In this document: one piece after another, positions 5,646 through 62,700 of the stretch | Layout of the letters: each line of letters starts with the position of its first letter | How positions within the stretch are numbered: the first letter of the stretch is position 1 | Assembly: GCA_016186325.1 (NCBI GenBank) | Contig: JACPLW010000010.1 | Location: 22,856-86,855, forward strand | Length of the DNA: 64,000 nt | Source of the DNA: Parcubacteria group bacterium | Lineage (GTDB): Bacteria; Patescibacteriota; Minisyncoccia; UBA10092 | Direction: 5' to 3' | Position numbers and translations under genes: made by a program | Notes under the pieces: generated by a model | Databases searched by the model: none | The model's input: the letters and a program-made list of their open reading frames with translations, nothing else | Told to the model about the DNA's origin: nothing

Positions 5646-6431
5646 TTAATTATCTGTTAGATTTCTAACGGGGTCAACTGTTATTTGTTGATAAGTTTTA
5701 TAGTGCTTGAGGCGATGGAAAAGATAGATAACTAAAGCCGCGGCACCGCCCAAGGTAATACCGGTTAAAAATACGCGCAAAAAATCATTCTCATTAGTTA
5801 TGAGAAAATTGTAAATGCCATGAAGAATTACAGCACTAAAGAGTCCAACAAGAATTAAGCGCGCGTCTTTTTTTACGAAATAATAGACAGCGAAAAAGTA
5901 TCCCGCAATCCCGGATGCCAAGCCGTGCAATGCTACGGCACTTATAAATCGTAAAGATACAAAATTAAGGGTTTCGCTTACGTAGCCGGGCGTGCCAAGC
6001 GGTATGTATGAAAAAATAGCAAAAACATTTTCTATTGCCGCAAAGCCTAAAGCGGCGGTAATGACGTAAATCATGCCATCAACCGGCTCGTCTAAAATCG
6101 GATTTTTGTTTAAAGCAAGATGAACCGCGCCGTATTTTGACGCCTCTTCTACTAGCGGCGCGATAAAAATCAAAAGCAGGATGCTTTCTATAGCAGGCAA
6201 CAACTCAAAGTAACCGAAAAATCTCGACAGAACCATTTCAAGAAAAATTACAAGCGGCGCCAAAGCGACGCCCATTAAAAATATTGTAAAAAGCCAATAT
6301 CGCGGCTCCGGGTGGTCGTCTTCCCTAAGATAAAAAAGTAGCCAAATCAAACTGGGAAGAACGGCTAGAATTATCGTTGGTATTAATGCGGACGGTTCTT
6401 GATTAAGCATTTTATTTCGGCCATTCTTCAA
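5646..6431 (-). CDS. PrsW-family intramembrane metalloprotease
   Basis: Multi-TM protein with the motifs EEASKY (EExxK), FAAIEN (FxxxE) and HGIYN (Hxxx[ND]). The true start may be the ATG near 6410, which would remove the overlap with valS. Confidence 0.55.
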   Translation of the reverse strand: MKNGRNKMLNQEPSALIPTIILAVLPSLIWLLFYLREDDHPEPRYWLFTIFLMGVALAPLVIFLEMVLSRFFGYFELLPAIESILLLIFIAPLVEEASKYGAVHLALNKNPILDEPVDGMIYVITAALGFAAIENVFAIFSYIPLGTPGYVSETLNFVSLRFISAVALHGLASGIAGYFFAVYYFVKKDARLILVGLFSAVILHGIYNFLITNENDFLRVFLTGITLGGAAALVIYLFHRLKHYKTYQQITVDPVRNLTDN

Positions 6432-8616
6432 TCATAATCGGTTTTCCCCGACGCTTTCGGTCGGGGCTCCGACCCCCGCTTTGCGGGGCGTCGGAGTTAT
6501 TCAATATTCCCCAAATTTCTTCGGTTAAAAAAGGAAGAAAGGGGTGGAGCAGTTTCAATAAATCTTCGTGGACTTTTATAAGGACTTCTTGAGTTTGCTG
6601 TCTTGCTTTTTCATCGGCAAGCTCCGACGCTTTGGTCGGAGCTCCGACTTCTTCAGAACGTCGGAGCTGTTTTTTTGCGGTTTCAATATAAATATCGGCG
6701 TATTCGTGCCAGAAAAAATCGTAAAGTTTATGAAGTGCCTGTCCAAACTCGTACTTTTCTATCCTGTTGCCGACTTCAACAATTGTTTTTTTGAGACCAC
6801 TTAAAATTTTCTTATCCGCTTCAGTTAAATTTTGATTTTTGCTTGCCCGCCGAAGCCTTGGCGTAGGCGGGATTTTTGAATTCACGTTTTGTTTTACAAA
6901 ACGCGTGGCGTTCCATATCTTATTACAGAATTTTTTGCCGGTTAACATCGCATCTTCATTAAACCGAATGTCCTGACTGCCGAGATTTTGGTACATCATA
7001 CCGAAGCGAGTAGCGTCAGCACCGTATTTTTCAATTAAATCAATCGGGTCAACACCGGTACCTCGAGATTTAGACATTATTTTACCTTCTTTATTAAGAA
7101 CCGTAGCGTGAATGTGTGTGGTGTTAAAAGGTGATTGGCCTGTAAATTCCAATCCTGAAAAAATCATTTTGGCAATCCAAATATCTCGAATATCTCTTGC
7201 TGAAGTAATAAAGTCGGTAGGATGGTATTTTTTAAGGTCGTTTGTTTTGTTGGGCCAGCCAAGTGTCGCAAAAGGCCAAAGCGCCGAAGAAAACCAAGTA
7301 TCCAAAACATCGGTTTCTCCCTCTAAAGGAATTTTGTGACCCCACCAAAGTTGGCGGGAAATATTCCAGTCCCTTTCATTTTTAAGGCGATTTAATAAAA
7401 CTTTCTCCCATTTTTGCGGGTGAATAATTGTTTTTTTCTTTTTTATTGCGTCAATTGCCAGTTTGGCAAGCTTTTCCATTTTCAAAAACCATTGCTCGGA
7501 CGGCAGAGGTTCAATGACCGAGTTACAGCGGTCGCAGCGGGCGATATTGTGCTCGTAATCTTCTATTTTTTCAATTAACCCGATGGCTTCAAGGTCTTTA
7601 ACTATTTGTTCGCGCGCTTCAGTCACTTTCATTCCCTTATAGCGCAAGCCGGCGTTCTCGTTCATTCGGCCGTGTTCATCAATTATAGTGATTGAAGGTA
7701 AGTTATGACGTTCCGCGATTTCAAAATCCGTTATATCGTGCGCCGGCGTAACCTTAATAATGCCGGTTCCAAATTCCGGGTCCACAGATTTATCTGCTAT
7801 TACCTTTATTTTAATTTTTTTGGTTTTAGCCGGCTGATTATTCGGCAAATCGTTGTCTATAGATTCTATCTCCAAATCTTTTCCCCAGTATTTTTTGTAA
7901 CGTTTGTCATTAGGGTGTACCGCTAAGGCAGTGTCGCCAAGTTTAGTTTCCGGTCTAGTCGTGGCGAGGGTGAGCGGTCCGTATTTGATAAAATAAAGTT
8001 TTGCGTGCTCCGGTATGTAGTCAACCTCTAGATCAGAGATTCCCGTGGCGCAGCGGACGCACCAATTAATAACGCGCTTGCCGCGATAAATCCAACCTTT
8101 TTTATAATAATGATTAAATGCTTCCACGACGGCTTTGGAGTAATCAGAATCCATAGTATATCTGGTTCGTGACCAGTCCGAGGATATGCCCAGCAATTTT
8201 AATTGGTCAAAAATAATATTGCCGTATTTTTCTTTCCACTCTTTAACTTTCTCAACAAATTTTTCCTGGCCTAGATCTTGGCGGCGCAAACCTTCTTTGC
8301 GAAGTTCTTTTTCAACAACATTTTGGGCAGAAATGCCGGCGTGGTCTATGCCCGGAAGCCAGAGCGTTTTAAAGCCCTTCATTCTTTTCATTCTCACCAA
8401 AATATCAACCTCGGTATTTTCCAAGACGTGGCCCATATGGAGCGAGCCGGTGATATTTGGCGGCGCCATCATCACCGAAAATTTCTTTTTTCTTTTTACG
8501 GCTTGCCCCGAAGAAGGCGGCGGCAGTTTATCAGGATTAAAAAAGCCCGATTCTTCCCAGAGCCGGTAAATTTTATCTTCAACTTCTTTTGGGTTATACG
8601 GAGAATCAAAGTTCAT
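6412..8616 (-). CDS. valS: Valyl-tRNA synthetase (class I). The C-terminal domain carries two in-frame palindromic-element insertions
   Basis: PPNITGSLHMGH (HIGH motif) and KIMSKS (KMSKS motif). Its coding sequence contains two family-B palindromic repeat copies (features at 6446-6496 and 6620-6667). Confidence 0.8.
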   Translation of the reverse strand: MNFDSPYNPKEVEDKIYRLWEESGFFNPDKLPPPSSGQAVKRKKKFSVMMAPPNITGSLHMGHVLENTEVDILVRMKRMKGFKTLWLPGIDHAGISAQNVVEKELRKEGLRRQDLGQEKFVEKVKEWKEKYGNIIFDQLKLLGISSDWSRTRYTMDSDYSKAVVEAFNHYYKKGWIYRGKRVINWCVRCATGISDLEVDYIPEHAKLYFIKYGPLTLATTRPETKLGDTALAVHPNDKRYKKYWGKDLEIESIDNDLPNNQPAKTKKIKIKVIADKSVDPEFGTGIIKVTPAHDITDFEIAERHNLPSITIIDEHGRMNENAGLRYKGMKVTEAREQIVKDLEAIGLIEKIEDYEHNIARCDRCNSVIEPLPSEQWFLKMEKLAKLAIDAIKKKKTIIHPQKWEKVLLNRLKNERDWNISRQLWWGHKIPLEGETDVLDTWFSSALWPFATLGWPNKTNDLKKYHPTDFITSARDIRDIWIAKMIFSGLEFTGQSPFNTTHIHATVLNKEGKIMSKSRGTGVDPIDLIEKYGADATRFGMMYQNLGSQDIRFNEDAMLTGKKFCNKIWNATRFVKQNVNSKIPPTPRLRRASKNQNLTEADKKILSGLKKTIVEVGNRIEKYEFGQALHKLYDFFWHEYADIYIETAKKQLRRSEEVGAPTKASELADEKARQQTQEVLIKVHEDLLKLLHPFLPFLTEEIWGILNNSDAPQSGGRSPDRKRRGKPIMIEEWPK
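6446..6496. repeat. Family-B palindromic element inserted in-frame within the valS 3' end
   Basis: ccccgacgctttcggtcggggctccgacccccgctttgcggggcgtcggag. It translates (minus strand) to ...APQSGGRSPDRKRRG.... Confidence 0.6.
6620..6667. repeat. Family-B palindromic element inserted in-frame within valS
   Basis: gctccgacgctttggtcggagctccgacttcttcagaacgtcggagc. It is nearly identical to the intergenic copy at 22435-22484 and translates to ...RRSEEVGAPTKASELAD.... Confidence 0.65.
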
Positions 8617-9788
8617 AGCCTAAGGTTAGCATCTGCGACTATTTTTTTCCATGAATCTTTTTGCGGTTTTTTCTTGAGATAATTAAAATAGCCGGCGGCG
8701 GCAATCATCGCGGCATTGTCGGTGGTGTAAGACAAATCGGGAACAAGCAACGGGATTTTATAGGATGCGATTTTTTTCGCCATTTCTTCGCGCAGTTTTC
8801 TATTGGCGGACACGCCGCCGGCAATCATTACTGATTTTGGATTGAAATTTTTCACCGCTTTAAGCGTTTTAGCGATTAAAACATCAACTATCGCATTCTG
8901 AACTTCAAAAGCCAAAGTCGGTCTGATTTTAGAAATCGGATATTTTTTTATCAAATCATTATACAGATACAAAACTGCGGTTTTAAGTCCTGAAAAAGAA
9001 AAGTTATGATTATCAGAATTTATCATCGGCCGAGGGAGTTTAATTTCGAATTTAGAATTTCGAATTTCGAATTTGTTTGTGATTTGTGATTTGTGATTTG
9101 TGATTTTTGATGCTTCGGTGGCGATAGCGGGACCGCCGGGGTATCCGAGGCCTAGAAGACGCGCCGTTTTATCAAAAGCCTCTCCGGCCGCGTCGTCAAG
9201 TGTTTGGCCTACAATTTTATATTGGCCGTAGTTTCTCATTAAAACCAGCTCAGTGTGCCCGCCGGAAACGATAAGAATTAACGCGGGAAATTCAATTTTT
9301 TTTGAGATTTGTCTCCCTTCGGTAGATCCCCCGTAGGGGGAAGATTTGTCTCCCTTCGGGAGATCCCCCGTAGGGGGAAGATTTGAGATTTTTCCAATTG
9401 GCGGCAGCCAATTGGAATAGATGTGTCCCTCGATATGATTGACGCCTATAATAGGTTTTTGCCACCTATAAGCTGGGGCCCTAGCGAAATTGACTCCGAT
9501 TAAAAGCGACGGCACTAGTCCCGGTCCCCGCGTTACCGCAATCAGGTCAACTTTCTCACTATTGATGTCGGACATCGATAATGCGGCGTTGATTGTGGGG
9601 CCGATTTTTTCAAGATGGGCACGACTAGCGAGATTGGGAACGACTCCCCCGAATTTCTTGTGAATCGCCACCTGGGAATAGGAAACATTTGATAAAACTG
9701 AAAAATAAGGGTTATCAAATCCTCCCTTTGCTTCTATAATCGCCGCGGCAGTGTCGTCGCATGAAGTTTCAATCCCTAGGATATGCAT
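8613..9788 (-). CDS. tsaD: tRNA N6-adenosine threonylcarbamoyltransferase TsaD (Kae1/Gcp family), with low-complexity repeat insertions
   Basis: N-terminal MHILGIETSCDDTAAAI, HIEGH and a C-terminal Gcp-like region. At 391 aa it is longer than typical because of tandem-repeat-encoded inserts. Confidence 0.75.
   Translation of the reverse strand: MHILGIETSCDDTAAAIIEAKGGFDNPYFSVLSNVSYSQVAIHKKFGGVVPNLASRAHLEKIGPTINAALSMSDINSEKVDLIAVTRGPGLVPSLLIGVNFARAPAYRWQKPIIGVNHIEGHIYSNWLPPIGKISNLPPTGDLPKGDKSSPYGGSTEGRQISKKIEFPALILIVSGGHTELVLMRNYGQYKIVGQTLDDAAGEAFDKTARLLGLGYPGGPAIATEASKITNHKSQITNKFEIRNSKFEIKLPRPMINSDNHNFSFSGLKTAVLYLYNDLIKKYPISKIRPTLAFEVQNAIVDVLIAKTLKAVKNFNPKSVMIAGGVSANRKLREEMAKKIASYKIPLLVPDLSYTTDNAAMIAAAGYFNYLKKKPQKDSWKKIVADANLRL
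9044..9112. repeat. Tandem heptanucleotide repeats (aatttcg/gaatttc x about 4, then tgatttg x 4) inside the tsaD coding region
   Basis: Read directly. They encode ...ITNHKSQITNHKSQITNKFEIRNSKFEIK.... Confidence 0.7.
9304..9377. repeat. Family-C element: two tandem 37-bp copies of gatttgtctcccttcgg(g/t)agatcccccgtagggggaa, each a double hairpin, in-frame in tsaD
   Basis: tctcccttcgggaga and tcccccgtaggggga hairpins, encoding ...GDKSSPYGGSTEGRQ.... A third copy lies in mltG at 49512-49548. Confidence 0.7.
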
Positions 9789-10019: not shown

Positions 10020-11873
10020 ATGCCTGAAGAACTTGACCGATCTGATGGGCCGATTAATGTGGAGCAACTCTTATTAGAGCTTCGCGATATTAACCTAAAA
10101 ATTCCCCATGTTAAGCCGACAGAAATTCAAGAGCAGCTTCGTGAGTCGGCGAAAAAATTGCGCGCGAAGTTAGAAGAGCTTTTTAAGAGAATTGAAAACG
10201 ATCATGAAAGGCGAGTTCATCTTACGCAGGCTTTAGAGAGGGCTTCGGCTGAAATTGAAAGACTTACGGCTCCGCCCCTTCCTTATGGTTATGTGGATCG
10301 CATTCACGATGATGGCACGATTGATGTTTTTATTAACAAGGATAATAGAAGGCGCGTTAATGTCTCTCCAGAAGTTAATGTTAAAGAATTGAAAACCGGT
10401 CAGCGGGCGCTCTTAAGTAATATAAACTACACCATTTTAGAAATTGATGAGGAATGGGAAAAGATTGGAGAAGAAGGCAAGGTCTCTGCTCTTCTAGGTG
10501 AAGACATAGTGAGAGTGGTCACTCATCTTGATGAAGTTCATGATGTAATCTTAGCCGCGCCTTTGAGAGAACAAAAAATTCGCGAAGGCGATTCCCTTCT
10601 CATTTTTGGAAATTTTGCTTTTGCTAAGTTACCCAAAGCAGAAACCGATGAGCTTCTGCTTGAAAAAGTGCCCGAAATTGGTTTCGCCCAAATCGGCGGC
10701 TTGAAAAATCAGGTTGAAATACTGCTTGAGGCCATTGAATATCCGGCGCTTTATCCGGAATTGTTCGCGCTTCATAAGCTCAAGCCGACTAAGGGCGTCT
10801 TGCTTTACGGGCCTCCCGGTTGCGGCAAAACACTTTTGGCCAAAGCCGTGGCTAACTTATTGGCGCAGAAGACGCGTAAGAAAATAGGCGATGCAAATAT
10901 CTGTGCTTATTTCATCAATATTAAAGGTCCGGAACTTCTTAATAAGTGGGTTGGCGAAACAGAGAGAAAAATCCGCGAAGTATTCCAGCGTGCCAGAGAA
11001 AAGGCGGTAGAAGGCTCCCCCGTTATTATCTTTTTTGACGAATTTGATTCTCTTTTCAGAACCCGCGGTTCGGGGATTTCTTCCGATATTGAGTCAACTG
11101 TCGTGCCACAGTTTTTATCCATGTTGGATGGCGCTGAGGAGCTTAATAATGTCATTGTTATAGGCGCCTCCAATAGGCAAGACCTAATTGATCCAGCGAT
11201 ACTGCGCCCCGGCCGTTTTGATATCAAGATTAAGGTTGACCGGCCTGATGAACTTGGCGCCAAAGAAATTCTTGGAATTTATGTTACTCCCGATTTGCCT
11301 TGGGGCGAAGATTCCGAAGGCAAGTCGTATGTTGGCCAGAAATTTCATTCGGTTGTTAACCGTTTGCATGGCAATAAACCATATAGCGTTGATTTAAGTA
11401 CGCCGGAACTAGTAGTTGAACACATGATCAAGGTTATTGTTGAATATTTGTATTATGTCGGTCCGCCGATTGCTTGGACTGACAGGCGCGGCAACCAGCA
11501 TGAATACAACACCGAATGCATTGAAATTACTTGGGCCGATGGAGAAAGGAAAATGTTATATGTTAAGGATATTTTGGTTTCCGGTGCCATGATTGAAAGC
11601 ATCGTAAATCGCGTTAAGAAAATAGCCATTAAACGCGCCGTCACTGGTAAAGGAGGCATTAAAATGGTTGATTTTTATACGGCCATAAGAGACGAAATCA
11701 AAGAAAGCAGTGACTTGCCGAATACCAATAATCCTGATGATTGGGCCAAGATCATCGGCCAGCGTTCGGAGAGCGGCCAGCGGATTGTTAATGTCCGCCC
11801 CATTATTGGGACACAGAGGGTGGCTAGTTCCCGGAGTACAGAACATGTTGTTACTACCGGCCAATATTTGTAA
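10020..11873 (+). CDS. mpa: Mpa/ARC-type AAA+ ATPase (proteasome-associated ATPase homolog) ending in the GQYL motif
   Basis: N-terminal coiled coil, Walker A GPPGCGKT, Walker B IIFFDEFD, and a C-terminal ...TTGQYL*. In actinobacterial Mpa the GQYL tail is the 20S proteasome docking motif. Confidence 0.75.
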   Translation: MPEELDRSDGPINVEQLLLELRDINLKIPHVKPTEIQEQLRESAKKLRAKLEELFKRIENDHERRVHLTQALERASAEIERLTAPPLPYGYVDRIHDDGTIDVFINKDNRRRVNVSPEVNVKELKTGQRALLSNINYTILEIDEEWEKIGEEGKVSALLGEDIVRVVTHLDEVHDVILAAPLREQKIREGDSLLIFGNFAFAKLPKAETDELLLEKVPEIGFAQIGGLKNQVEILLEAIEYPALYPELFALHKLKPTKGVLLYGPPGCGKTLLAKAVANLLAQKTRKKIGDANICAYFINIKGPELLNKWVGETERKIREVFQRAREKAVEGSPVIIFFDEFDSLFRTRGSGISSDIESTVVPQFLSMLDGAEELNNVIVIGASNRQDLIDPAILRPGRFDIKIKVDRPDELGAKEILGIYVTPDLPWGEDSEGKSYVGQKFHSVVNRLHGNKPYSVDLSTPELVVEHMIKVIVEYLYYVGPPIAWTDRRGNQHEYNTECIEITWADGERKMLYVKDILVSGAMIESIVNRVKKIAIKRAVTGKGGIKMVDFYTAIRDEIKESSDLPNTNNPDDWAKIIGQRSESGQRIVNVRPIIGTQRVASSRSTEHVVTTGQYL

Positions 11874-11883
11874 TAAAGTAAAC

Positions 11884-11912
11884 ATCCGCGCAAATTGCGC
11901 GGATATTTTATT
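11884..11912 (+). terminator. Rho-independent terminator after mpa
   Basis: atccgcgcaaattgcgcggat followed by attttattt. Confidence 0.55.
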
Positions 11913-11962
11913 TCTGATACCATGTTTTAAGTGATTTGTACTTTTAAAAGAGGAGAAATCAA

Positions 11963-13729
11963 ATGCAGGTCCTTGTTTCAGATATCGACTATTATGATGG
12001 CTACGGAGATTTTTCAGACCTTTTTTATCGATGTTTGCCCAGACGCCGTTTTAACCGGATACGCTATGAGCTTCCTATGGTTTTTGGAAGCGAAACAGAA
12101 TTTGGTTTGACATACAGCAGGGTACTCGATAAAGAAAAGGCAAAATTTTTTCCGGTAGATTCTCCGGAGACAGTTTTTCTCCATATTATTAAGAAAGTTG
12201 CCGAAAAAACAAAAGCCTTTGCGCGCGATCCGGCATCGCCATGGTTAAGAAACGGACTAAATCATTTTGATCGGATCAGCATTGGTAAAATAACCGAAGC
12301 GGCGATTTCAGACGATATTTCCTGTCTTCCCGTTAAGCTTAAAAAAGCAGTTGAAAGAACAGGACTATCGGCTAAAGATTTTTATTTGGGAGAAACAGGA
12401 ATATTTTTAGAAGAAGGCAGCCGTCTTTACATCGACGGTCCGCATTTAGAATCGTCTATCAGTGAATGCCGGGAACCGGGCGAAGTAGTTTGTCATGAAA
12501 AAGCAATGGAGAATATTATTACCGGAGTTTTACCTGAACTGGAAAATGAGATCGGTCGTGAAATTGTTATTCTTAAGGATAATACCGATAGGCACGGCAA
12601 CAGTTATGGCTGTCATACAAACTATCTGCTTATGCTGGAATTTTTCAATCGGCTTTACGTAAAAAACGAATGGAGCGATGCTTGGTTAAGTTTTATTACC
12701 TCCGGCATAATTGTTACCGGCAGCGGTAAGGTCGGCTATGAATGCTATAGCGAGCCGTGCGACTACCAAATTTCTCAAAGAGCCGATCATTTTATGAGAA
12801 TTTTAGGCAGCGGTACGATGTATTTTCGTCCGCTTATCAACTTTAGAGACGAACCGTTGGCCGACAGAGCGAAATACGGCCGTTTTCATGTAATTTTAGA
12901 TGATTCCAATATGGCCGAATGGTCCATTTATCTTAAAATTGGCACTAAAGCGCTGGTTTTAAATATGCTTCAGCATCAATTTTTCGAAGGTGGAAAAACT
13001 ATCAAGTATAAAGAGCTTTTTATAGATAATCCGATTGAATCTCTAAAATTCATTTCCAGGGATTTGACGTGTAAGAAGAAAGTCCTGTTAGCGGACGGCA
13101 GTGAAAAATCAGCTCTTGAAATTCAAGAGGAATGGCTAAGTATTGTTGAAGATTTTTATTCAGGTTCTGATTCTTATCCTTTTTGGATTTCGGATGTTAT
13201 AGCAAAATGGAAATTAACTCTACGGTGGATTAGAGATGATGATGACAATCTTGATTCGGTTTTGGACTGGCGGATTAAACTTTCCCTCATCAAAGGTATA
13301 AAAGAAAAATATGCCAAAAGAGGAATAACTCTTGATTGGCGAGATGGTCGGATTAAAGATTTAGACTGCCTTTACCATAGTTTGGGTCCCAAAGGTCTTT
13401 ACAATTGCGCTTTAAAAGCGGGTCACATTGAAAGAATTGTAACAGATGAACAAATTGAAATAGCTAAAACTGAGCCACCCGAAAACACCAGAGCATGGCT
13501 GCGCGGCCGGTTTATAAGGCACTTTTTGCCACATCTTGTCGATGCCAGCTGGGAGCTCCTGTCTTTTTATATTAAAATCGGTGATTTTGAAACATTGGTG
13601 TCGCTTAAGATGGACCCGCTCTGCAGTACGCGCCATAAGGTGGGCGAGTTGTTTACAGAAACAGACAGTTATGAAAGTTTTTGCAAGAGGTTTCTTTCCA
13701 TGTATTTAAGTGGTAGGAGTCTTTTTTAA
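11963..13729 (+). CDS. Pup ligase/deamidase family protein (PafA/Dop homolog 1; longer form, possibly Dop-like)
   Basis: FGSETEFG (the GIETEYG-like N-terminal motif), GNSYGCHTNYLL, SQRADHF, RPLINFRDEPLADRAKYGRFHVILDDSNMAEWSIYLKIGTKALVL, LYHSLGPKG and PPENTRAWLRGRFI all match conserved PafA/Dop blocks. Strong SD aggag upstream. Confidence 0.75.
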   Translation: MQVLVSDIDYYDGYGDFSDLFYRCLPRRRFNRIRYELPMVFGSETEFGLTYSRVLDKEKAKFFPVDSPETVFLHIIKKVAEKTKAFARDPASPWLRNGLNHFDRISIGKITEAAISDDISCLPVKLKKAVERTGLSAKDFYLGETGIFLEEGSRLYIDGPHLESSISECREPGEVVCHEKAMENIITGVLPELENEIGREIVILKDNTDRHGNSYGCHTNYLLMLEFFNRLYVKNEWSDAWLSFITSGIIVTGSGKVGYECYSEPCDYQISQRADHFMRILGSGTMYFRPLINFRDEPLADRAKYGRFHVILDDSNMAEWSIYLKIGTKALVLNMLQHQFFEGGKTIKYKELFIDNPIESLKFISRDLTCKKKVLLADGSEKSALEIQEEWLSIVEDFYSGSDSYPFWISDVIAKWKLTLRWIRDDDDNLDSVLDWRIKLSLIKGIKEKYAKRGITLDWRDGRIKDLDCLYHSLGPKGLYNCALKAGHIERIVTDEQIEIAKTEPPENTRAWLRGRFIRHFLPHLVDASWELLSFYIKIGDFETLVSLKMDPLCSTRHKVGELFTETDSYESFCKRFLSMYLSGRSLF

Positions 13730-13735
13730 AGTTTT

Positions 13736-13761
13736 AAACCCCTTCGTTTCGAAGGGGTTTT
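13736..13761 (+). terminator. Rho-independent terminator
   Basis: aaaccccttcgtttcgaaggggtttt. Confidence 0.6.
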
Positions 13762-13863
13762 ACGTATAAAAACCAGGATATGGCAATTTTCTTAAAGCTA
13801 CGTTAAGATATAAAAAGTCATTTTTATTCTTTAACAACTTATTAAGATAGGAATGAGAGTGCT

Positions 13864-15360
13864 ATGAGAGATCGAGTCATGGGAGGCGAAATCGAATGGC
13901 TTGGTAACTTTAGGCCCAATCCTAACTGCCGATGGCAGGAAGCCGGGAACCTGTTTGAATCAATTAAAGCATTTCTTTGCAAAAAATATAGTATTAACAA
14001 TTCTGGAGAGTTATTTCTTCCAAACGGCTCTCGTTTTTACCATGAGTCAACGGGTAATCATATTGAGACCACGACCCCCGAATGTGGAAGCGCAAGAGAT
14101 GTCTTAAAATACGAAAAATGGCAAGAGCGCTTTATGTGCCGACTTTCAAAAGAACTGAAGGACAGTCTGGGAGAATTCGTGTTTCAAAAAAAGAACAGCA
14201 GTGATAATTTAGCCGATACCCGCGGCTCTCATGAGAGTTATTTGTCCGATAAAATGTTTAGTGATTTACTGAGTTCTGCTCAAGCAAGATTATATTCTAT
14301 GCCCCCCACTATGGACCCGCGGCTTAATTATCTTATTCTGTTTTTAATAACACGTCAGATTTTTACCGGTAGCGGCGGCGGCATTTTAAGCTGCCAAGAC
14401 AACAGTCGCAACGATTATGTAATTTCTCCTAGGGCTTATTTCATTGAGACGATTTTTAGCTCTTCATCAACCAGCTCGCGGCCGATTATTCACATTCGCA
14501 AAGAAGCGTTAGCCGATGACTCCAAATATTGGCGCAATCATTTTATTTTAGGCGATGCTAATATGGCCGACCTTTCAATCTTTCTTAAATTCGGAACGAC
14601 AAGCGCCGTTTTGGAGATGATCGAGGAAGGTTTTTACGATAAGACATTGAATATGTTTGATCCTCGTGAAGCTGCCAATCTATTTAAAAAAATCTCCGGC
14701 GATTTAACCCTGCGAAACGTGCCAATTCGTTTGGTGGGTGGCGGAGATGAAGGTGTTATAGGAATCCAAAAACGATTCTGCCAAGATTTCAAAAGATACC
14801 TCGGCTATTCCGGTCAAGGCGGAGAAAAATTAGAAATTGCGCAAAGATGGTGGGAGATTTTGGAATGCCTGCAAGGGGACGATGAAAAAGTTTATCGGGA
14901 GTTAGATTACAAGATTAAGTTTAGGCTTTTAAATGACTATATGACGGCAAGGGGTCTTTCTCTTTCTGATAACAAGGTTAGGATGCTCGATCTTGACTAC
15001 CACAGTTCGGATCCGAAAAAAAGCTTTTATTACTTGTTAAAGAATCGTCCGAGTTCTAAATTTGAAAGTTTGGTGAGTGAAAGTAAAATTTTGGAAAGAG
15101 GGGGCCTACCTCCAAATACCAGGGCTAAGTTAAGAGCTCAAATTCAATTGCTTCTTGAAGAATTAGACATGTCTTATAGTTTAAATTGGGATTTGGTGTC
15201 GTTCAAACCCATTGGTTCAGATGTACCTGAAAGAAAATTACACTTACCAGAACCGCGCGTTTCATCATTTGACGGTCTAAATTTTGAAAAAAACTATGAT
15301 GCCATAGATTATCTAAACTCTTTAAAGCCCGGCGCTATTAAAATTCGTAAAGCCCCCTAG
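13864..15360 (+). CDS. Pup ligase/deamidase family protein (PafA/Dop homolog 2; divergent)
   Basis: MGGEIEW, RPIIHIRKEALADDSKYWRNHFILGDANMADLSIFLKFGTTSAVLEMIEEG, LDLDYHSSDP and PPNTRAKLRAQ. Same family as the preceding gene, but the GNSYGCHENY block is replaced by RGSHESYL. Confidence 0.7.
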   Translation: MRDRVMGGEIEWLGNFRPNPNCRWQEAGNLFESIKAFLCKKYSINNSGELFLPNGSRFYHESTGNHIETTTPECGSARDVLKYEKWQERFMCRLSKELKDSLGEFVFQKKNSSDNLADTRGSHESYLSDKMFSDLLSSAQARLYSMPPTMDPRLNYLILFLITRQIFTGSGGGILSCQDNSRNDYVISPRAYFIETIFSSSSTSSRPIIHIRKEALADDSKYWRNHFILGDANMADLSIFLKFGTTSAVLEMIEEGFYDKTLNMFDPREAANLFKKISGDLTLRNVPIRLVGGGDEGVIGIQKRFCQDFKRYLGYSGQGGEKLEIAQRWWEILECLQGDDEKVYRELDYKIKFRLLNDYMTARGLSLSDNKVRMLDLDYHSSDPKKSFYYLLKNRPSSKFESLVSESKILERGGLPPNTRAKLRAQIQLLLEELDMSYSLNWDLVSFKPIGSDVPERKLHLPEPRVSSFDGLNFEKNYDAIDYLNSLKPGAIKIRKAP

Positions 15361-24326: not shown

Positions 24327-24896
24327 ATGATCTTAAAAGGGAAATCATTGACTAGGGAAATATTATTTGTGGTTGCCGTTAGTCCAATTTTGCTTTCTGC
24401 CCTATTTGCTCCCAACGCAGTTCAGCTTTTAAAGCCGTTGATTAAATGGCGTAAAAATTGGGATAAGATTGATTATAAACGAATCCATGAAGCAGTACGG
24501 AGACTAAACAATAAAAGATTAGTAAGATTAACGGAAAAAGGCGATAAGTTATTTATAGAAATTACCGACAGCGGTAAACGATTAGTTAAAAACTTTGATT
24601 ATGATAATTTAGAACTGCCCAAACTAAAAGAATGGGACAAAAAATGGCGGTTGGTGGTCTTTGACATTCCCAATAAAAAGAAAAAAGAAAGGCGCGCTTT
24701 TTCCAGAAAATTAAAAGATATTGGTTTTTATCCTCTGCAGGAAAGCGTATTTATTTATCCTTATGATTGCCGCGATGAAATGGATTTTATTTGCGAATTT
24801 TTATCAATCGGCCGTTATATAAATTATTGTATTGTTGAATCTTTAGATAAAAGAGAAGGAGATCTGCGCCGAATCTTTGATTTAGAGCTTTCTTAA
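24327..24896 (+). CDS. PaaX-family regulator-like protein (Cas2/VapD-fold C-terminal domain)
   Basis: WDKKWRLVVFDIPNKKKKERRAFSRKLKDIGFYPLQESVFIYP matches the PaaX C-terminal domain consensus (WxxxWxLVxFDIPE...R...L...GFG.L..SV). Confidence 0.5.
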   Translation: MILKGKSLTREILFVVAVSPILLSALFAPNAVQLLKPLIKWRKNWDKIDYKRIHEAVRRLNNKRLVRLTEKGDKLFIEITDSGKRLVKNFDYDNLELPKLKEWDKKWRLVVFDIPNKKKKERRAFSRKLKDIGFYPLQESVFIYPYDCRDEMDFICEFLSIGRYINYCIVESLDKREGDLRRIFDLELS

Positions 24897-55829: not shown

Positions 55830-56082
55830 AAAACACTTCTTACAATCTACGCACTTTATGCCGATCGGAAATAACTGCGTAGATTTTTTATGACTTTTTT
55901 GAATTTTTTAAGTTTAATTAGCGGGGAGCAGTGGACAACGTTAGAATCTGTTTTTAGACTATTACTGTTAAGTTGTTTATACCAAAACTATCACTTAACA
56001 CCTTTCTTATAAAATGAAAAAGCGGGCGAGATTATCGCACCGCTTGTTATGTGTTCTTTTTTCTTATAAATCAAGAAGCCAT

Positions 56083-56391
56083 TTACCAGTATTTTGGGGA
56101 ATACTTTACTTCATCTGGAATCGGGTTTACAAATACCCGTTCAACTGCCCGATAGAAAAACCACAGAGGCCACAAAGGAACTGCCCAACGCCTAATTTGT
56201 ATAAATATTAATGTTCTGTTCAGAAAGTCGCGATGCGCTTTAATTGTCTCAACATTTTTAGCAAATGCCAGCTCATCATCGCATCGGTTTATTTCTCGTT
56301 GCGTCATCCAACGCGAATGCAGTCTTCTAACCGTCCTGGTAGCTTGAGATGCATTAAACACACAATCAAGCCAAGGATCGTACATACCCAT
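56083..56391 (-). CDS. Hypothetical protein (102 aa)
   Basis: Good SD (ggaggtcgac-ATG). Lies inside the segment bounded by the 72-bp direct repeats. Confidence 0.4.
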   Translation of the reverse strand: MGMYDPWLDCVFNASQATRTVRRLHSRWMTQREINRCDDELAFAKNVETIKAHRDFLNRTLIFIQIRRWAVPLWPLWFFYRAVERVFVNPIPDEVKYSPKYW

Positions 56392-56507
56392 GTCGACCTC
56401 CGTTTGAATTTTTAATGTACATTATCAGATTGAGCCCCAGCCATCTGCTATAATGGCAGGCGCCAATTGGATAAGTATATACCATATAATAAAAATCCTG
56501 TCAAATC

Positions 56508-56575
56508 TGCGGGCCGGACGGGATTTGAACCCGCGATCTCTGTCGTGACAGGGCAGCGCTTTGAACCGCATAACC
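56508..56575 (-). other. Truncated tRNA 3' fragment (T-arm plus acceptor 3' strand only), related to but distinct from tRNA-Asp
   Basis: GAGATCGCGGGTTCAAATCCCGTCCGGCCCGCA against tRNA-Asp GAGATCGCCGGTTCGAATCCGGTCGCCCGCGCA. The stem positions differ by compensatory changes. No 5' half is present. Confidence 0.5.
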
Positions 56576-56644
56576 AGAAATGAAATGGAATTCGGAGTCG
56601 GCGCTTATCAGAGAGCGTTAAAAGAACTGGAGTTTATTGATTGA
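56573..56644 (+). repeat. 72-bp direct repeat of the 3' end of the 55296-55829 gene (about 94% identical)
   Basis: accagaaatgaaatggaattcggagtcggcgcttatcagagagcgttaaaagaactggagtttattgattga, against the same segment at 55758-55829. Confidence 0.7.
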
Positions 56645-56713
56645 CATATTTATTTAGTGTTTGTTATTATACTTTTCACTACAATTTTTATTATGCCCTG
56701 AGGGAGTCGGGAA

Positions 56714-56929
56714 ATGGCAGCAGGCGAGATATTTGAAAATCTAAAAGAATTCTCATCTAAAGAAAATAAAGTAGTTTTTAAAAATCCATTCTTTCTGTTC
56801 AGAGGCGAATCAAAAGATGAAGCACCGGAAGAAGTTCTTATTACAACACATGCTATCGAAGGAAATTACGGCGAGGTTGTAAGTGCTAATGACGTGGCTA
56901 CTTTTATAGCCGATCTATTGAATAGATAG
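56714..56929 (+). CDS. Hypothetical small protein (71 aa)
   Basis: ORF only. It sits between the tRNA fragment and the intact tRNA-Asp. Confidence 0.3.
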   Translation: MAAGEIFENLKEFSSKENKVVFKNPFFLFRGESKDEAPEEVLITTHAIEGNYGEVVSANDVATFIADLLNR

Positions 56930-57014
56930 AGCTTGGAAAAATAAAAAAAATTAAGCGCATCCAATAAATAACTATATTTATTGGATTTTTTATTGATTGT
57001 GAGAATCTTTTGTG

Positions 57015-57164: not shown

Positions 57165-57207
57165 TTTTAATTTGACCATTCTACCAGAATTAACGTATAA
57201 TTTCAAC

Positions 57208-57279
57208 GCGGGGTAGAGCAGTCTGGTAGCTCGCGAGGCTCATAACCTTGAGGTCGTTGGTTCAAATCCAACCCCCGCA
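57208..57279 (+). tRNA. tRNA with anticodon CAT (elongator Met or Ile2), with its own TATAAT box
   Basis: GCGGGGTAGAGCAGTCTGGTAGCTCGCGAGGCTCATAACCTTGAGGTCGTTGGTTCAAATCCAACCCCCGCA. TATAAT at 57196-57201. Confidence 0.75.
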
Positions 57280-57527
57280 ACACTTCGACTCGCTTCGCTC
57301 GCTCAGTGCAGGCAAGTTGCTTTTTTCGTAAAAATTTGATAAAATAAGCGCATGCTTTTAGGCACAAGACACGCTTATTTAATAGCCCTTATTTTTTCAA
57401 GCGTTCTGGCCTGGTCTTCTTTTTTTGGCATTGTTTTTTTTACCAATCCCGCCGATGCCGGTGTTCTCGGAGTTTTGACCTTGTATGTTAGTCTTGGCAT
57501 CGGATTGGGCAGTTTCGGACTCATTAT

Positions 57528-58694
57528 ATGGCAACTGATAAATCGGAAGAAAAATTAATAGAAGATTTACAAAAACGTCACGATCCAGAGGCCGAAAGGC
57601 TAAAGCGTTTTCTTGCTATGCCAGACTTGACGCGCACTTCAGAAGGTCCGCTGGCGGATCTTGCGCGGCGTATTGTTAATTTGCCGCGTTTTAGCGAATT
57701 TAATAATTTAAACATACCGGAGATTGTTCCGTATGATATAAGTTTTGATCTCTTCAATTTTCCCCCCAACCACCCGGCTAGAAATCCTTCTGACACCTAC
57801 TTTGTTGATGAAAATCATGTTTTGCGGACTCACACTACGGTAATGTGGTATTATCATCTGAACCTTGCCGAAGTAAAGAGTAAAATTAAAAAAGGCGAAT
57901 CCGTTGGCGCATTGGCGTACGGCAAGGTTTACCGTAAAGACGAAATAGATAGGGAGCACATGAACGTATTCCATCAGATAGACGGATGGTATTTATGTCG
58001 CAAGGAAAATCATGTTATAACAATAGATGATCTTCAAGAAGTTTTAGTGGAAATAGCGCGCGCAATCTTCGGGCAGGATATTAAGTATCGTTTTAATGTC
58101 GACAATTTTCCGTATACGGATCCTTCAATTGAGATGGAGGTCCAGATTAGAGAGCGGTCCTTCGACAAGCTCAGGATCCCGAGCAAAGTCGAGGGATGGA
58201 TAGAAGTTTTAGGCGCCGGAGTTGTAAGAGAGGCTGTTCTAAAAAACCTAGGCATTGATCCGGAAGAATATAATGGCTGGGCGTTTGGGTTCGGTCTTGA
58301 ACGATTAGCCATTACCAGCATGGACTTGCCCGACATTCGCCTTTTATGGTCTCAAGACGAAAGAGTTAAAAGGCAATTGAAATTAGGGAATAAATATATA
58401 GAGGTTTCCAAATTTCCGCCTATTACCCGCGATATCTCATTTGTAGTCGACAAAAATTTCGTTCCCAACAACTATTTTGATTTGATAAGAGATCTTGGCG
58501 GCGATTTAGTGGAAGAGGTGCGGCTTTTAGACAAATACAGCAACTCCGAAAAGTTCGGACATGATAAGCTAAGCTATACATACCGTATTATCTACAGAAG
58601 CAATGACAGAACTCTTTTATCGAGCGAAGTAGATGAAGTTCAGAAAAAAATCTATAGCGAAACTGCCAAACAATTTAACGCGGAATTAAGATAA
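57528..58694 (+). CDS. pheS: Phenylalanyl-tRNA synthetase, monomeric mitochondrial-like architecture (PheS catalytic core fused to a C-terminal FDX-ACB anticodon-binding domain)
   Basis: The class II core carries FNFPPNHPARN, FPYTDPSIEMEV and GWAFGFGLERLA. The C-terminal 110 aa (SKFPPITRDISFVVD...LLDKY...DKLSYTYRIIYRSNDRTLL...AELR) match the FDX-ACB domain normally found at the end of PheT. No PheT-binding N-terminal coiled coil and no pheT nearby. Confidence 0.65.
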   Translation: MATDKSEEKLIEDLQKRHDPEAERLKRFLAMPDLTRTSEGPLADLARRIVNLPRFSEFNNLNIPEIVPYDISFDLFNFPPNHPARNPSDTYFVDENHVLRTHTTVMWYYHLNLAEVKSKIKKGESVGALAYGKVYRKDEIDREHMNVFHQIDGWYLCRKENHVITIDDLQEVLVEIARAIFGQDIKYRFNVDNFPYTDPSIEMEVQIRERSFDKLRIPSKVEGWIEVLGAGVVREAVLKNLGIDPEEYNGWAFGFGLERLAITSMDLPDIRLLWSQDERVKRQLKLGNKYIEVSKFPPITRDISFVVDKNFVPNNYFDLIRDLGGDLVEEVRLLDKYSNSEKFGHDKLSYTYRIIYRSNDRTLLSSEVDEVQKKIYSETAKQFNAELR

Positions 58695-58697
58695 ATC

Positions 58698-60628
<1,931 letters not shown>

Positions 60629-62001: not shown

Positions 62002-62700
62002 TTAGCTCTCCACTAAAAGATGTTCCATATCTTTTCTTTCGAGCATTATCTTTAAGGCATCTTCCGCGAAATCTTTATATTCCGCGATGGTTTTAAATTG
62101 TGAAATGATAATTTCTTTACCGCAAAGTTCTCTTCCATTTTTATCTTTTTTCTTCTTCATATACTCCTCCCAACTCGACTTGGAGACGCCGTCACCAAGT
62201 CGATGGACACGATTATTAAGATTCACATATGCGCTTACGTTCAGAAGATATTCGTTGGAGTCAACATGAACTGCTTTAAATGGACCTTGGAATAAAGAAC
62301 CGGAACGCTGACATTTTACATTGAAATATCTAGCATACCCAAGACATAATCTATGCATAAATTTTTCTATTCCTTTATCGGCGATTTGTCTCATTAAGAA
62401 GTGGTAATGATTTGGATTGAGGCAATAGCATACAAATTCCACTAACTTGGTGACGCCGTCACCAAGTTGAGATTCGCGCTTCCTAAATGAATTTTCAAAT
62501 ATACTTCCTATCGGTTCAACGGTATTGAACTCCTCCATACTTTGCAAGAATCTGGCATAATCTCGTGCGTCCATGAAAATTTGGCGTTTATCCACGCCTC
62601 GGCCGAAAATATGATAATACTCATCATTTACTAGTAATACTTTTCTCATACATCTTATTATACCACTTGGTGACGCCGTCACCAAGTATTTTTTCACCAT
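62002..62700 (-). CDS. REP-associated tyrosine transposase (RAYT; IS200-like Y1 HuH transposase) that carries three copies of its REP palindrome in-frame
   Basis: HuH motif NPNHYHFLM and a catalytic-Tyr region YVNLNNRVH (YxxxNP-like). The segments KYLVTASPSG, QLGDGVTKLV and RLGDGVSKSS are encoded by the palindrome copies. Confidence 0.6.
   Translation of the reverse strand: MVKKYLVTASPSGIIRCMRKVLLVNDEYYHIFGRGVDKRQIFMDARDYARFLQSMEEFNTVEPIGSIFENSFRKRESQLGDGVTKLVEFVCYCLNPNHYHFLMRQIADKGIEKFMHRLCLGYARYFNVKCQRSGSLFQGPFKAVHVDSNEYLLNVSAYVNLNNRVHRLGDGVSKSSWEEYMKKKKDKNGRELCGKEIIISQFKTIAEYKDFAEDALKIMLERKDMEHLLVES

Follow-up and report, generated by a model that had tools for sequence, protein, structure and literature searches.

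A Predicted Single-Chain Phenylalanyl-tRNA Synthetase in Parcubacteria

INTRODUCTION

Can a bacterium charge its tRNA-Phe with a single polypeptide? Among the synthetases, phenylalanyl-tRNA synthetase (PheRS) is, to our knowledge, the textbook exception: all bacteria are taken to make it as a large (alpha-beta)2 enzyme. Single-chain PheRS has so far been treated as a mitochondrial peculiarity, and its origin is unclear. The question is raised by one gene in the 64-kb stretch of DNA analyzed here (the window), which comes from an ultra-small Parcubacteria (CPR/Patescibacteria) bacterium. In full-text literature searches, which leave most subscription journals outside their coverage, no paper described a single-chain PheRS from bacteria. 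The sequences themselves are public but unrecognized: among the best 120 relatives of the window protein, NCBI uses the label "hypothetical" and IMG the label "PheRS alpha chain."

DOMAIN ORGANIZATION

What does the gene encode? The open reading frame (ORF) has exactly the boundaries first noted for it, begins with an ATG that is conserved among homologues, and specifies 388 amino acids (aa) plus a stop (Table 1). Its product is identical to NCBI HYW79_03395, a "hypothetical protein" on a 114-kb contig of a Parcubacteria group bacterium MAG. A Pfam scan recognizes only two families in it at E<=1, tRNA-synt_2d (PF01409; aa 36 to 283, E 1.2e-55, 189 bits) and FDX-ACB (PF03147; aa 294 to 388, E 4.3e-23, 82 bits), the latter over the whole profile (positions 1 to 94 of 94). 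Both matches are far beyond chance, and they bear out the sequence-only reading of this DNA, which had described a PheS catalytic core fused to a C-terminal FDX-ACB domain.

That reading had also taken the C-terminal domain to be the one that ends PheT in most bacteria. The C-terminal 106 aa match positions 694 to 798 of the 798-position bacterial PheT model TIGR00472 (73.6 bits). Since this is the very end of the model, the fused domain is the one that normally closes the beta subunit. The remaining PheT domains for which we looked, B1, the B3/4 editing domain, B5, and B6/7, are not found in the fused protein by Pfam at E<=1. The same is true of the PheS N-terminal domain, PF02912, and the claim that the N-terminal coiled coil is missing therefore held. 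In the place where PheS has a coiled-coil domain of about 100 aa stands a segment of about 45 aa with two predicted helices (aa 5 to 16 and 20 to 30, pLDDT 80 to 90). It is conserved in the Patescibacteria-type clade, and a hidden Markov model (HMM) of it matches Patescibacteria-type representatives only.

Two connecting elements deserve mention. The linker between the core and the anticodon-binding domain is conserved in sequence (PDIRLLWSxDxR) despite a pLDDT below 50, a low value that is as expected if the linker acts as a hinge. The core also carries an in-frame insertion, SFDKLRIPSKVEG, that is missing from every aligned homologue, the closest ones included. Other family members have unrelated insertions of about 9 to 32 aa in the beta-hairpin loop that holds it, and in several canonical PheS proteins this loop contains Cys-rich insertions of the CxxC type. 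An assembly error was considered as the source of SFDKLRIPSKVEG; against this are the preserved reading frame and the variable insertions in the same loop of relatives.

Table 1. Features of the fused PheRS gene and its surroundings in the window, and of the PheT-B2-like genes in Doudnabacteria loci (locus handle before the coordinates)
Feature	Position	Strand	Basis or remark
Complete CDS, fused single-chain PheRS	57528..58694	+	ORF, Pfam, identity to HYW79_03395
Short N-terminal segment, aa 1-45	57528..57662	+	Two predicted helices, no PF02912
Class IIc PheS catalytic core, aa 36-283, motifs 2 and 3	57633..58376	+	Pfam, alignment
Loop insertion SFDKLRIPSKVEG, 13 aa, aa 211-223	58158..58196	+	Alignment, low-confidence model
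Linker (aa 267-294) joining the core to FDX-ACB	58326..58409	+	Alignment, pLDDT below 50
FDX-ACB (PheT B8-type) anticodon-binding domain, aa 294-388	58407..58691	+	Pfam, TIGR00472
Sigma-70-like site TTGACC-18-TATAAT, near-consensus	57172-57201	+	Promoter scan
tRNA-Met, after the sigma-70-like site	57207-57281	+	Upstream of the 68-aa ORF
Hydrophobic 68-aa ORF	57352..57558	+	Overlaps PheRS start by 31 nt
gyrB, conserved syntenic partner	58698..60628	+	Directly 3' of PheRS; two ORFs
B2-like gene	L019 9508-9867		Gap to PheRS larger than in L032 and L034
B2-like gene	L022 9394-9879		Gap to PheRS larger than in L032 and L034
B2-like gene	L028 ~7083-7433		
B2-like gene	L032 10001-10432		20-27 nt upstream of PheRS
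B2-like gene	L034 10001-10420		20-27 nt upstream of PheRS

ACTIVE SITE AND PREDICTED FOLD

Is the catalytic machinery intact? The residues R136, H144, F148-H149-Q150, F194-P195, G254, G256, and R259 are invariant in the family alignment. With E. coli PheS the protein shares motif 2 (GKVYRKDEID..H.NVFHQ), the FPxTxPS strand, and motif 3 (GWAFGFGLERL). T197 and A252 align with T251 and A294 of E. coli PheS, which we take to be the specificity residues that set the size of the phenylalanine pocket. Counting against a housekeeping PheRS, the acidic residue that follows FHQ, E in the E. coli and human enzymes, is D in the window protein and G in Doudnabacteria. Judged from these alignments, the core carries the residues needed for binding ATP and phenylalanine and for forming Phe-AMP.

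An AlphaFold (AF2) model of the protein has a mean pLDDT of 79, with low values only in the 13-aa insertion and the linker. When the model was compared with solved structures by Foldseek, ranks 1 to 7 were all human mitochondrial PheRS (about 400 aligned columns, TM ~0.65, E ~2e-30), while coverage by bacterial PheS chains was limited to the core. The best PDB matches by sequence are likewise human mitochondrial PheRS (E ~6e-51). The model lies closer to the closed than to the tRNA-bound, open human mitochondrial enzyme (TM 0.65 versus 0.53), and this better match to the closed form would fit a hinge at the low-confidence linker.

How far, then, does the likeness to mitochondria go? The sequence-only reading had called the gene product a mitochondrial-type, monomeric PheRS, a state that sequence can only predict. 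As to the domains and the full-length fold match to the human enzyme, that description stands, but the protein scores 224.9 bits against the pheS_mito model TIGR00469, short of the cut-off of 258.35. Because of this shortfall, the window enzyme is best classed, as far as model scores can tell, as a sister-type bacterial form and not as a strict FARS2 orthologue. P0121, a family representative that is 64% identical, passes the same model at 264.3 bits. The scores against other models are also below their cut-offs: 223.3 bits against NF051887, the NCBIfam model of the "PheS-related mystery ligase SrmL" (aa 57 to 378; cut-off 300), 165.1 bits against the pheS model TIGR00468 (cut-off 237.45), and the above-mentioned match to TIGR00472, which covers only the last ~105 positions of the model (cut-off 402.65). 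The last two shortfalls would explain why NCBI calls the protein hypothetical.

THE LOCUS

The window is a piece of ordinary Patescibacteria chromosome, with genes for LeuRS, TsaD, RecG, EF-G, LigA, TIM, YceG, and GatA upstream of the fused gene and with gyrB, secE, and nusG downstream. The 68-aa ORF that overlaps the PheRS start encodes a membrane-like peptide without a Pfam match. The same arrangement recurs in an Azambacteria locus (L001), and for this reason the small ORF and the PheRS gene are probably cotranscribed. The candidate promoter listed in Table 1 may mark the start of a unit composed of tRNA-Met, the small ORF, PheRS, and gyrB, although the promoter scan overall was not enriched over shuffled sequences. 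No T-box or other leader RNA was found upstream of PheRS; Rfam reports tRNAs only.

Other observations concern the neighboring DNA. In the window, gyrB is split into an N-terminal ORF of 99 aa (58698-58997) and an ORF of 543 aa (58997-60628), while in related loci it is a single gene of 645 to 690 aa; a frameshift near 58997, from an assembly error or in a pseudogene, is probably the cause. Between the ORF that follows gatA and the tRNA cluster lies about 1.2 kb (55830-57000) with no convincing ORF or Rfam family. It includes a marginal tRNA-like fragment (56518-56576, minus strand) whose 29.1 bits are at the gathering threshold.

Farther away, at 10020-15360, this Patescibacteria genome has a pupylation-type cluster: a gene for an AAA ATPase whose OB domains are those of proteasomal ATPases (Mpa/ARC-like) and, after it, two genes of the Pup-ligase family (PafA/Dop-like). 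An ORF with a PaaX-middle/Cas2-like domain (24327-24896, plus strand) has no visible CRISPR context, and a weak IS200/Y1-transposase-like ORF (62002-62700, minus strand) lies near the 3' end of the window. LeuRS (6412-8616, minus strand) is only 733 aa long, and its match to the editing-domain Pfam family is weak and partial (27 bits, profile positions 77 to 147 of 185), a hint that the CP1 editing domain is reduced. If it is, LeuRS and an editing-free PheRS would share a pattern of reduced proofreading.

DISTRIBUTION AND INHERITANCE

Is this an isolated oddity? More than 6,000 database proteins match the fused PheRS at E<=1e-10. The best 120 of these, which are 71 to 100% identical and come from independent assemblies, all have both domains. 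When each GTDB species was represented by one genome, a scan yielded 29 loci, all from Patescibacteria, with the labels Azam-, Doudna-, Niyogi-, Yanofsky-, and Zambryskibacteria, Paceibacter, and Minisyncoccia. A second subclade, about 50% identical and seeded from P0124 (labeled Oligoflexia), bears the labels Wolfe-, Staskawicz-, Nealson-, and Portnoybacteria.

Both Patescibacteria subclades keep the gene order (gatCA)-x-PheRS-gyrB-secE-nusG-rplK, including on contigs of up to 1.2 Mb, and in 24 of 34 loci the fused gene is accompanied by gyrB. Long contigs with the fused gene include GCA_964474825.1 CAYYWQ010000001.1 (1.21 Mb), ERZ25039512 contig_17402 (0.95 Mb), one from GCA_030650355.1, and a 785-kb Staskawiczbacteria contig with P0491. 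Identity to the window, taken in the same loci, is 65% for PheRS versus 64% for GyrB and 68% for PheRS versus 66% for GatA. The conserved synteny, and an identity that tracks that of GyrB and GatA, show that the fused PheRS belongs to the core genes in much of the Parcubacteria/Paceibacteria and has been passed on vertically there.

Two fused relatives, P0125 and P0129, have W at positions where the family conserves G (e.g., KFWEDKKS and NWRAFGIW). This pattern suggests that they come from genomes in which UGA encodes Gly (code 25, Gracilibacteria/Absconditabacteria-like) and that they were translated with the wrong table. With such an origin, the single-chain form would extend beyond the Parcubacteria.

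IS IT THE ONLY PheRS?

A fused gene could exist in addition to a conventional pair. The sequence-only reading had seen no pheT nearby, and within the 64-kb window this proved correct. Family HMMs and E. coli PheS and PheT, searched against the six-frame translation, match only this ORF. Because tblastn with E. coli PheT is of limited sensitivity and missed even the window's own FDX-ACB domain at E<=1e-3, Pfam ORF scans and the six-frame family HMMs were added; the former, applied to every window ORF of 490 aa or more and to 20 others, detected no PheT domains. In 34 related loci (+/-10 kb each), the fused PheRS is present in one copy per locus, and PheT B3/4, B5, and B6/7 are absent from the roughly 0.5 Mb of flanks. 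From this copy evidence in the window and related loci, together with the synteny and conservation described above and the Paceibacterales and Doudnabacteria observations below, the fused enzyme is likely to be the organism's sole PheRS.

What about Parcubacteria with the conventional enzyme? Canonical pheST is present in some of them. Among assemblies labeled "Nealsonbacteria," one has the fused type and another a canonical PheT; these are different genomes. In Table S2 of PMC10936435, a single Paceibacterales genome is listed with canonical pheT (681 aa) and pheS and with the rplK-nusG-secE-gyrB block as in fused-type loci. The rows listed there include no PheRS-like gene beside gyrB and just a single PF01409 gene. 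According to Mukai et al. (2017, PMC5370408), the B2 domain is missing from many CPR PheT proteins.

These distributions bear on a different role for the gene, namely, that it encodes an accessory, SrmL-like paralogue of PheS that sits beside a normal pheS-pheT pair and does something other than bulk charging of tRNA-Phe. The SrmL model matches nearly the whole protein, so fused PheS-like proteins with a mysterious role do exist in prokaryotes; moreover, some Parcubacteria have the canonical pair, and the PheRS search covers the window and related loci. However, the protein falls far short of the SrmL cut-off, which 0 of 10 representatives tested reached (194 to 274 bits in relatives). Both the amino acid pocket and the anticodon-binding domain are PheRS-like, the gene has the synteny of a core gene and GyrB-like conservation, and the genomes that carry it are very small. 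The one canonical-type genome, in the table rows listed, has no fused gene at the syntenic site, and in Doudnabacteria a PheT-B2 remnant is linked to the fused gene. An accessory role is therefore improbable, and a housekeeping PheRS in reduced, single-chain form is what the gene probably encodes.

A COMPANION GENE IN DOUDNABACTERIA

The remnant just mentioned is a gene for a stand-alone tRNA_bind (PF01588) protein of 135 to 145 aa, located upstream of the fused PheRS in Doudnabacteria (Table 1) and adjoining it on contigs of 1.21 Mb and 0.95 Mb as well. Among solved structures, it matches PheT B2 domains best (E 1e-13 to 1e-11). In IMG, this family of about 700 proteins is labeled "PheRS beta chain," and in KEGG-style tables such a label would conceal how unusual the architecture is. 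Neither the 64-kb window nor the Azambacteria loci contain the gene. It looks like a remnant of PheT kept beside the fused enzyme, which, to go by sequence and gene order, the protein probably assists in trans in Doudnabacteria. The small tRNA-binding OB-fold proteins of the Trbp111/YgjH/CsaA type are likewise small and contain PF01588, but YgjH or MetRS C-terminal domains match the companion less well (E ~1e-4 to 1e-5), and the companion, unlike that type, is genetically linked to the fused PheRS.

Does the fused chain need a partner, then? It could be a catalytic subunit that acts only with a second copy of itself or with a highly reduced, unrecognized beta-like protein whose gene lies elsewhere and so would not be truly monomeric. 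Class II synthetases are normally dimeric, Doudnabacteria retain the B2-like protein beside the gene, and the conserved 68-aa ORF overlaps the start codon. Nevertheless, the B2-like gene is missing from the window and Azambacteria loci, the overlapping ORF specifies a hydrophobic, membrane-like peptide that no Pfam family matches, and the whole predicted chain superimposes on the monomeric human enzyme. We give a required partner little credence.

Finally, an artifact, whether FARS2 contamination of the bin or an assembly-made chimera of pheS and pheT, might be feared since the closest characterized relative is eukaryotic, yet its probability is negligible and conserved bacterial synteny rules it out: the flanking genes are bacterial (gatA, gyrB, secE, and nusG), that order recurs on the long contigs described above, the thousands of relatives include the 120 two-domain proteins from independent assemblies, and identity to FARS2-type proteins is only about 30 to 40%.

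HOW THE ENZYME WOULD WORK

If the gene does encode a reduced, single-chain housekeeping PheRS, its action can be sketched as follows. (i) The PheS core would bind ATP and phenylalanine and form Phe-AMP. (ii) The FDX-ACB domain, by analogy with human mitochondrial PheRS, would read the GAA anticodon of tRNA-Phe. (iii) The same domain would swing on the linker between a closed state and an open, tRNA-binding state, again as in the human enzyme. (iv) Like mitochondrial PheRS, the enzyme would need no beta subunit and would not edit Tyr-tRNA-Phe in cis. The fused gene would have replaced the canonical pheS-pheT pair in much of the Parcubacteria/Paceibacteria.

ORIGIN OF THE FUSION

Where did the fusion come from? 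A phmmer search of 1.84 billion cluster representatives gave 8,601 matches. The Patescibacteria family makes up a handful of 50% clusters, and the next-best matches are themselves fused proteins; the five of these that were tested (P0136, P0144, P0145, P0148, and P0149) all pass TIGR00469. The phylogeny with FARS2 and bacterial PheS for which the sequence-only reading had called was built from the catalytic core alone by neighbor joining (126 sequences, 193 columns, 100 bootstraps). All fused proteins, Patescibacteria and FARS2 type together, are separated from canonical PheS in 100 of 100 replicates. Support is 94/100 for the Patescibacteria-type clade and 100/100 for the subclade of the window, while the FARS2-type group is poorly resolved (47/100).

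Neighbor joining is a weak method, and the canonical PheS proteins in the tree are those most similar to the query. For the Patescibacteria side, such sampling renders the test conservative, and the closest canonical relatives of FARS2 possibly fall outside the sample. The C-terminal domain can be compared separately: the window FDX-ACB scores a median of 54 to 63 bits against FARS2-type domains versus 32 bits against E. coli PheT B8. By raw BLAST of the core, the best canonical PheS scores slightly higher than the fast-evolving FARS2-type cores.

Taken as sequence comparisons, these results favor a single origin for the fusion of PheS core and FDX-ACB. A more far-reaching proposal is tentative and, in our judgment, rather unlikely to hold in full: that the fusion arose once, the Patescibacteria enzyme and FARS2 being sisters; that mitochondrial PheRS came from, or shares a donor with, a prefused bacterial enzyme; and that a large bacterial radiation thus relies on an editing-free, one-polypeptide PheRS. 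If true, mitochondrial PheRS would be no eukaryote-specific invention, and Doudnabacteria would keep a three-piece remnant of PheST, in which the core and B8 share a chain and B2 acts in trans.

One of the FARS2-type proteins has an unusual setting. The P0149 gene, for a single-chain PheRS of 354 aa, occupies positions 8001-9065 of a 160-kb contig (L036, Logan SRR32456865) among densely packed, same-strand genes, most of them without a Pfam match. Neighbors with a Pfam match include an eIF-1a-like protein, dNMP kinase, dCMP deaminase, and PcfJ. In these respects the contig resembles the genome of a large phage or giant virus.

IMPLICATIONS

Why would a single-chain PheRS in bacteria matter? 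A conserved single-chain form, if it holds, would provide a bacterial sister group against which the origin of mitochondrial PheRS could be tested. These Parcubacteria would be without cis-editing by PheRS, a matter of relevance to the fidelity of translation in minimal cells. There would be a practical consequence as well: TIGR00468 and TIGR00472 are presumably among the marker models from which the phylogeny and completeness of bacterial genomes are assessed, and fused-type genomes would seem to miss both. For biochemistry, the protein would offer a compact PheRS scaffold.

COMPARISON WITH KNOWN SYSTEMS

Three known systems invite comparison. The first is SrmL, for which our full-text literature search found no paper. 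Its model aligns over both the core and the C-terminal domain of the window protein, and because it spans both, the layout of SrmL appears to be similarly fused.

The second is canonical (alpha-beta)2 PheRS, as in E. coli and T. thermophilus (1PYS). The catalytic chemistry and motifs are the same as those of the window protein, and the core is 33 to 37% identical to E. coli PheS. In E. coli, pheS and pheT are adjacent, whereas the window gene has gyrB downstream and the 68-aa ORF upstream.

The third is the mitochondrial enzyme, represented by FARS2 (3CMQ/3TUP) and yeast MSF1. Here the likeness is one of overall plan: one polypeptide in which a flexible linker connects a class IIc PheS core to a C-terminal, B8-like FDX-ACB domain, and which has neither a coiled-coil N-terminal domain nor an editing domain. 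The differences are in origin and detail. Unlike FARS2, the window gene is bacterial and chromosomal, and its product has no targeting peptide. An insertion of about 30 aa that splits the FARS2 alignment is missing from the window protein, which reads TTVMWYY where FARS2 reads TSAHQ. The Patescibacteria type has, in turn, a conserved N-terminal two-helix segment of its own, unlike FARS2.
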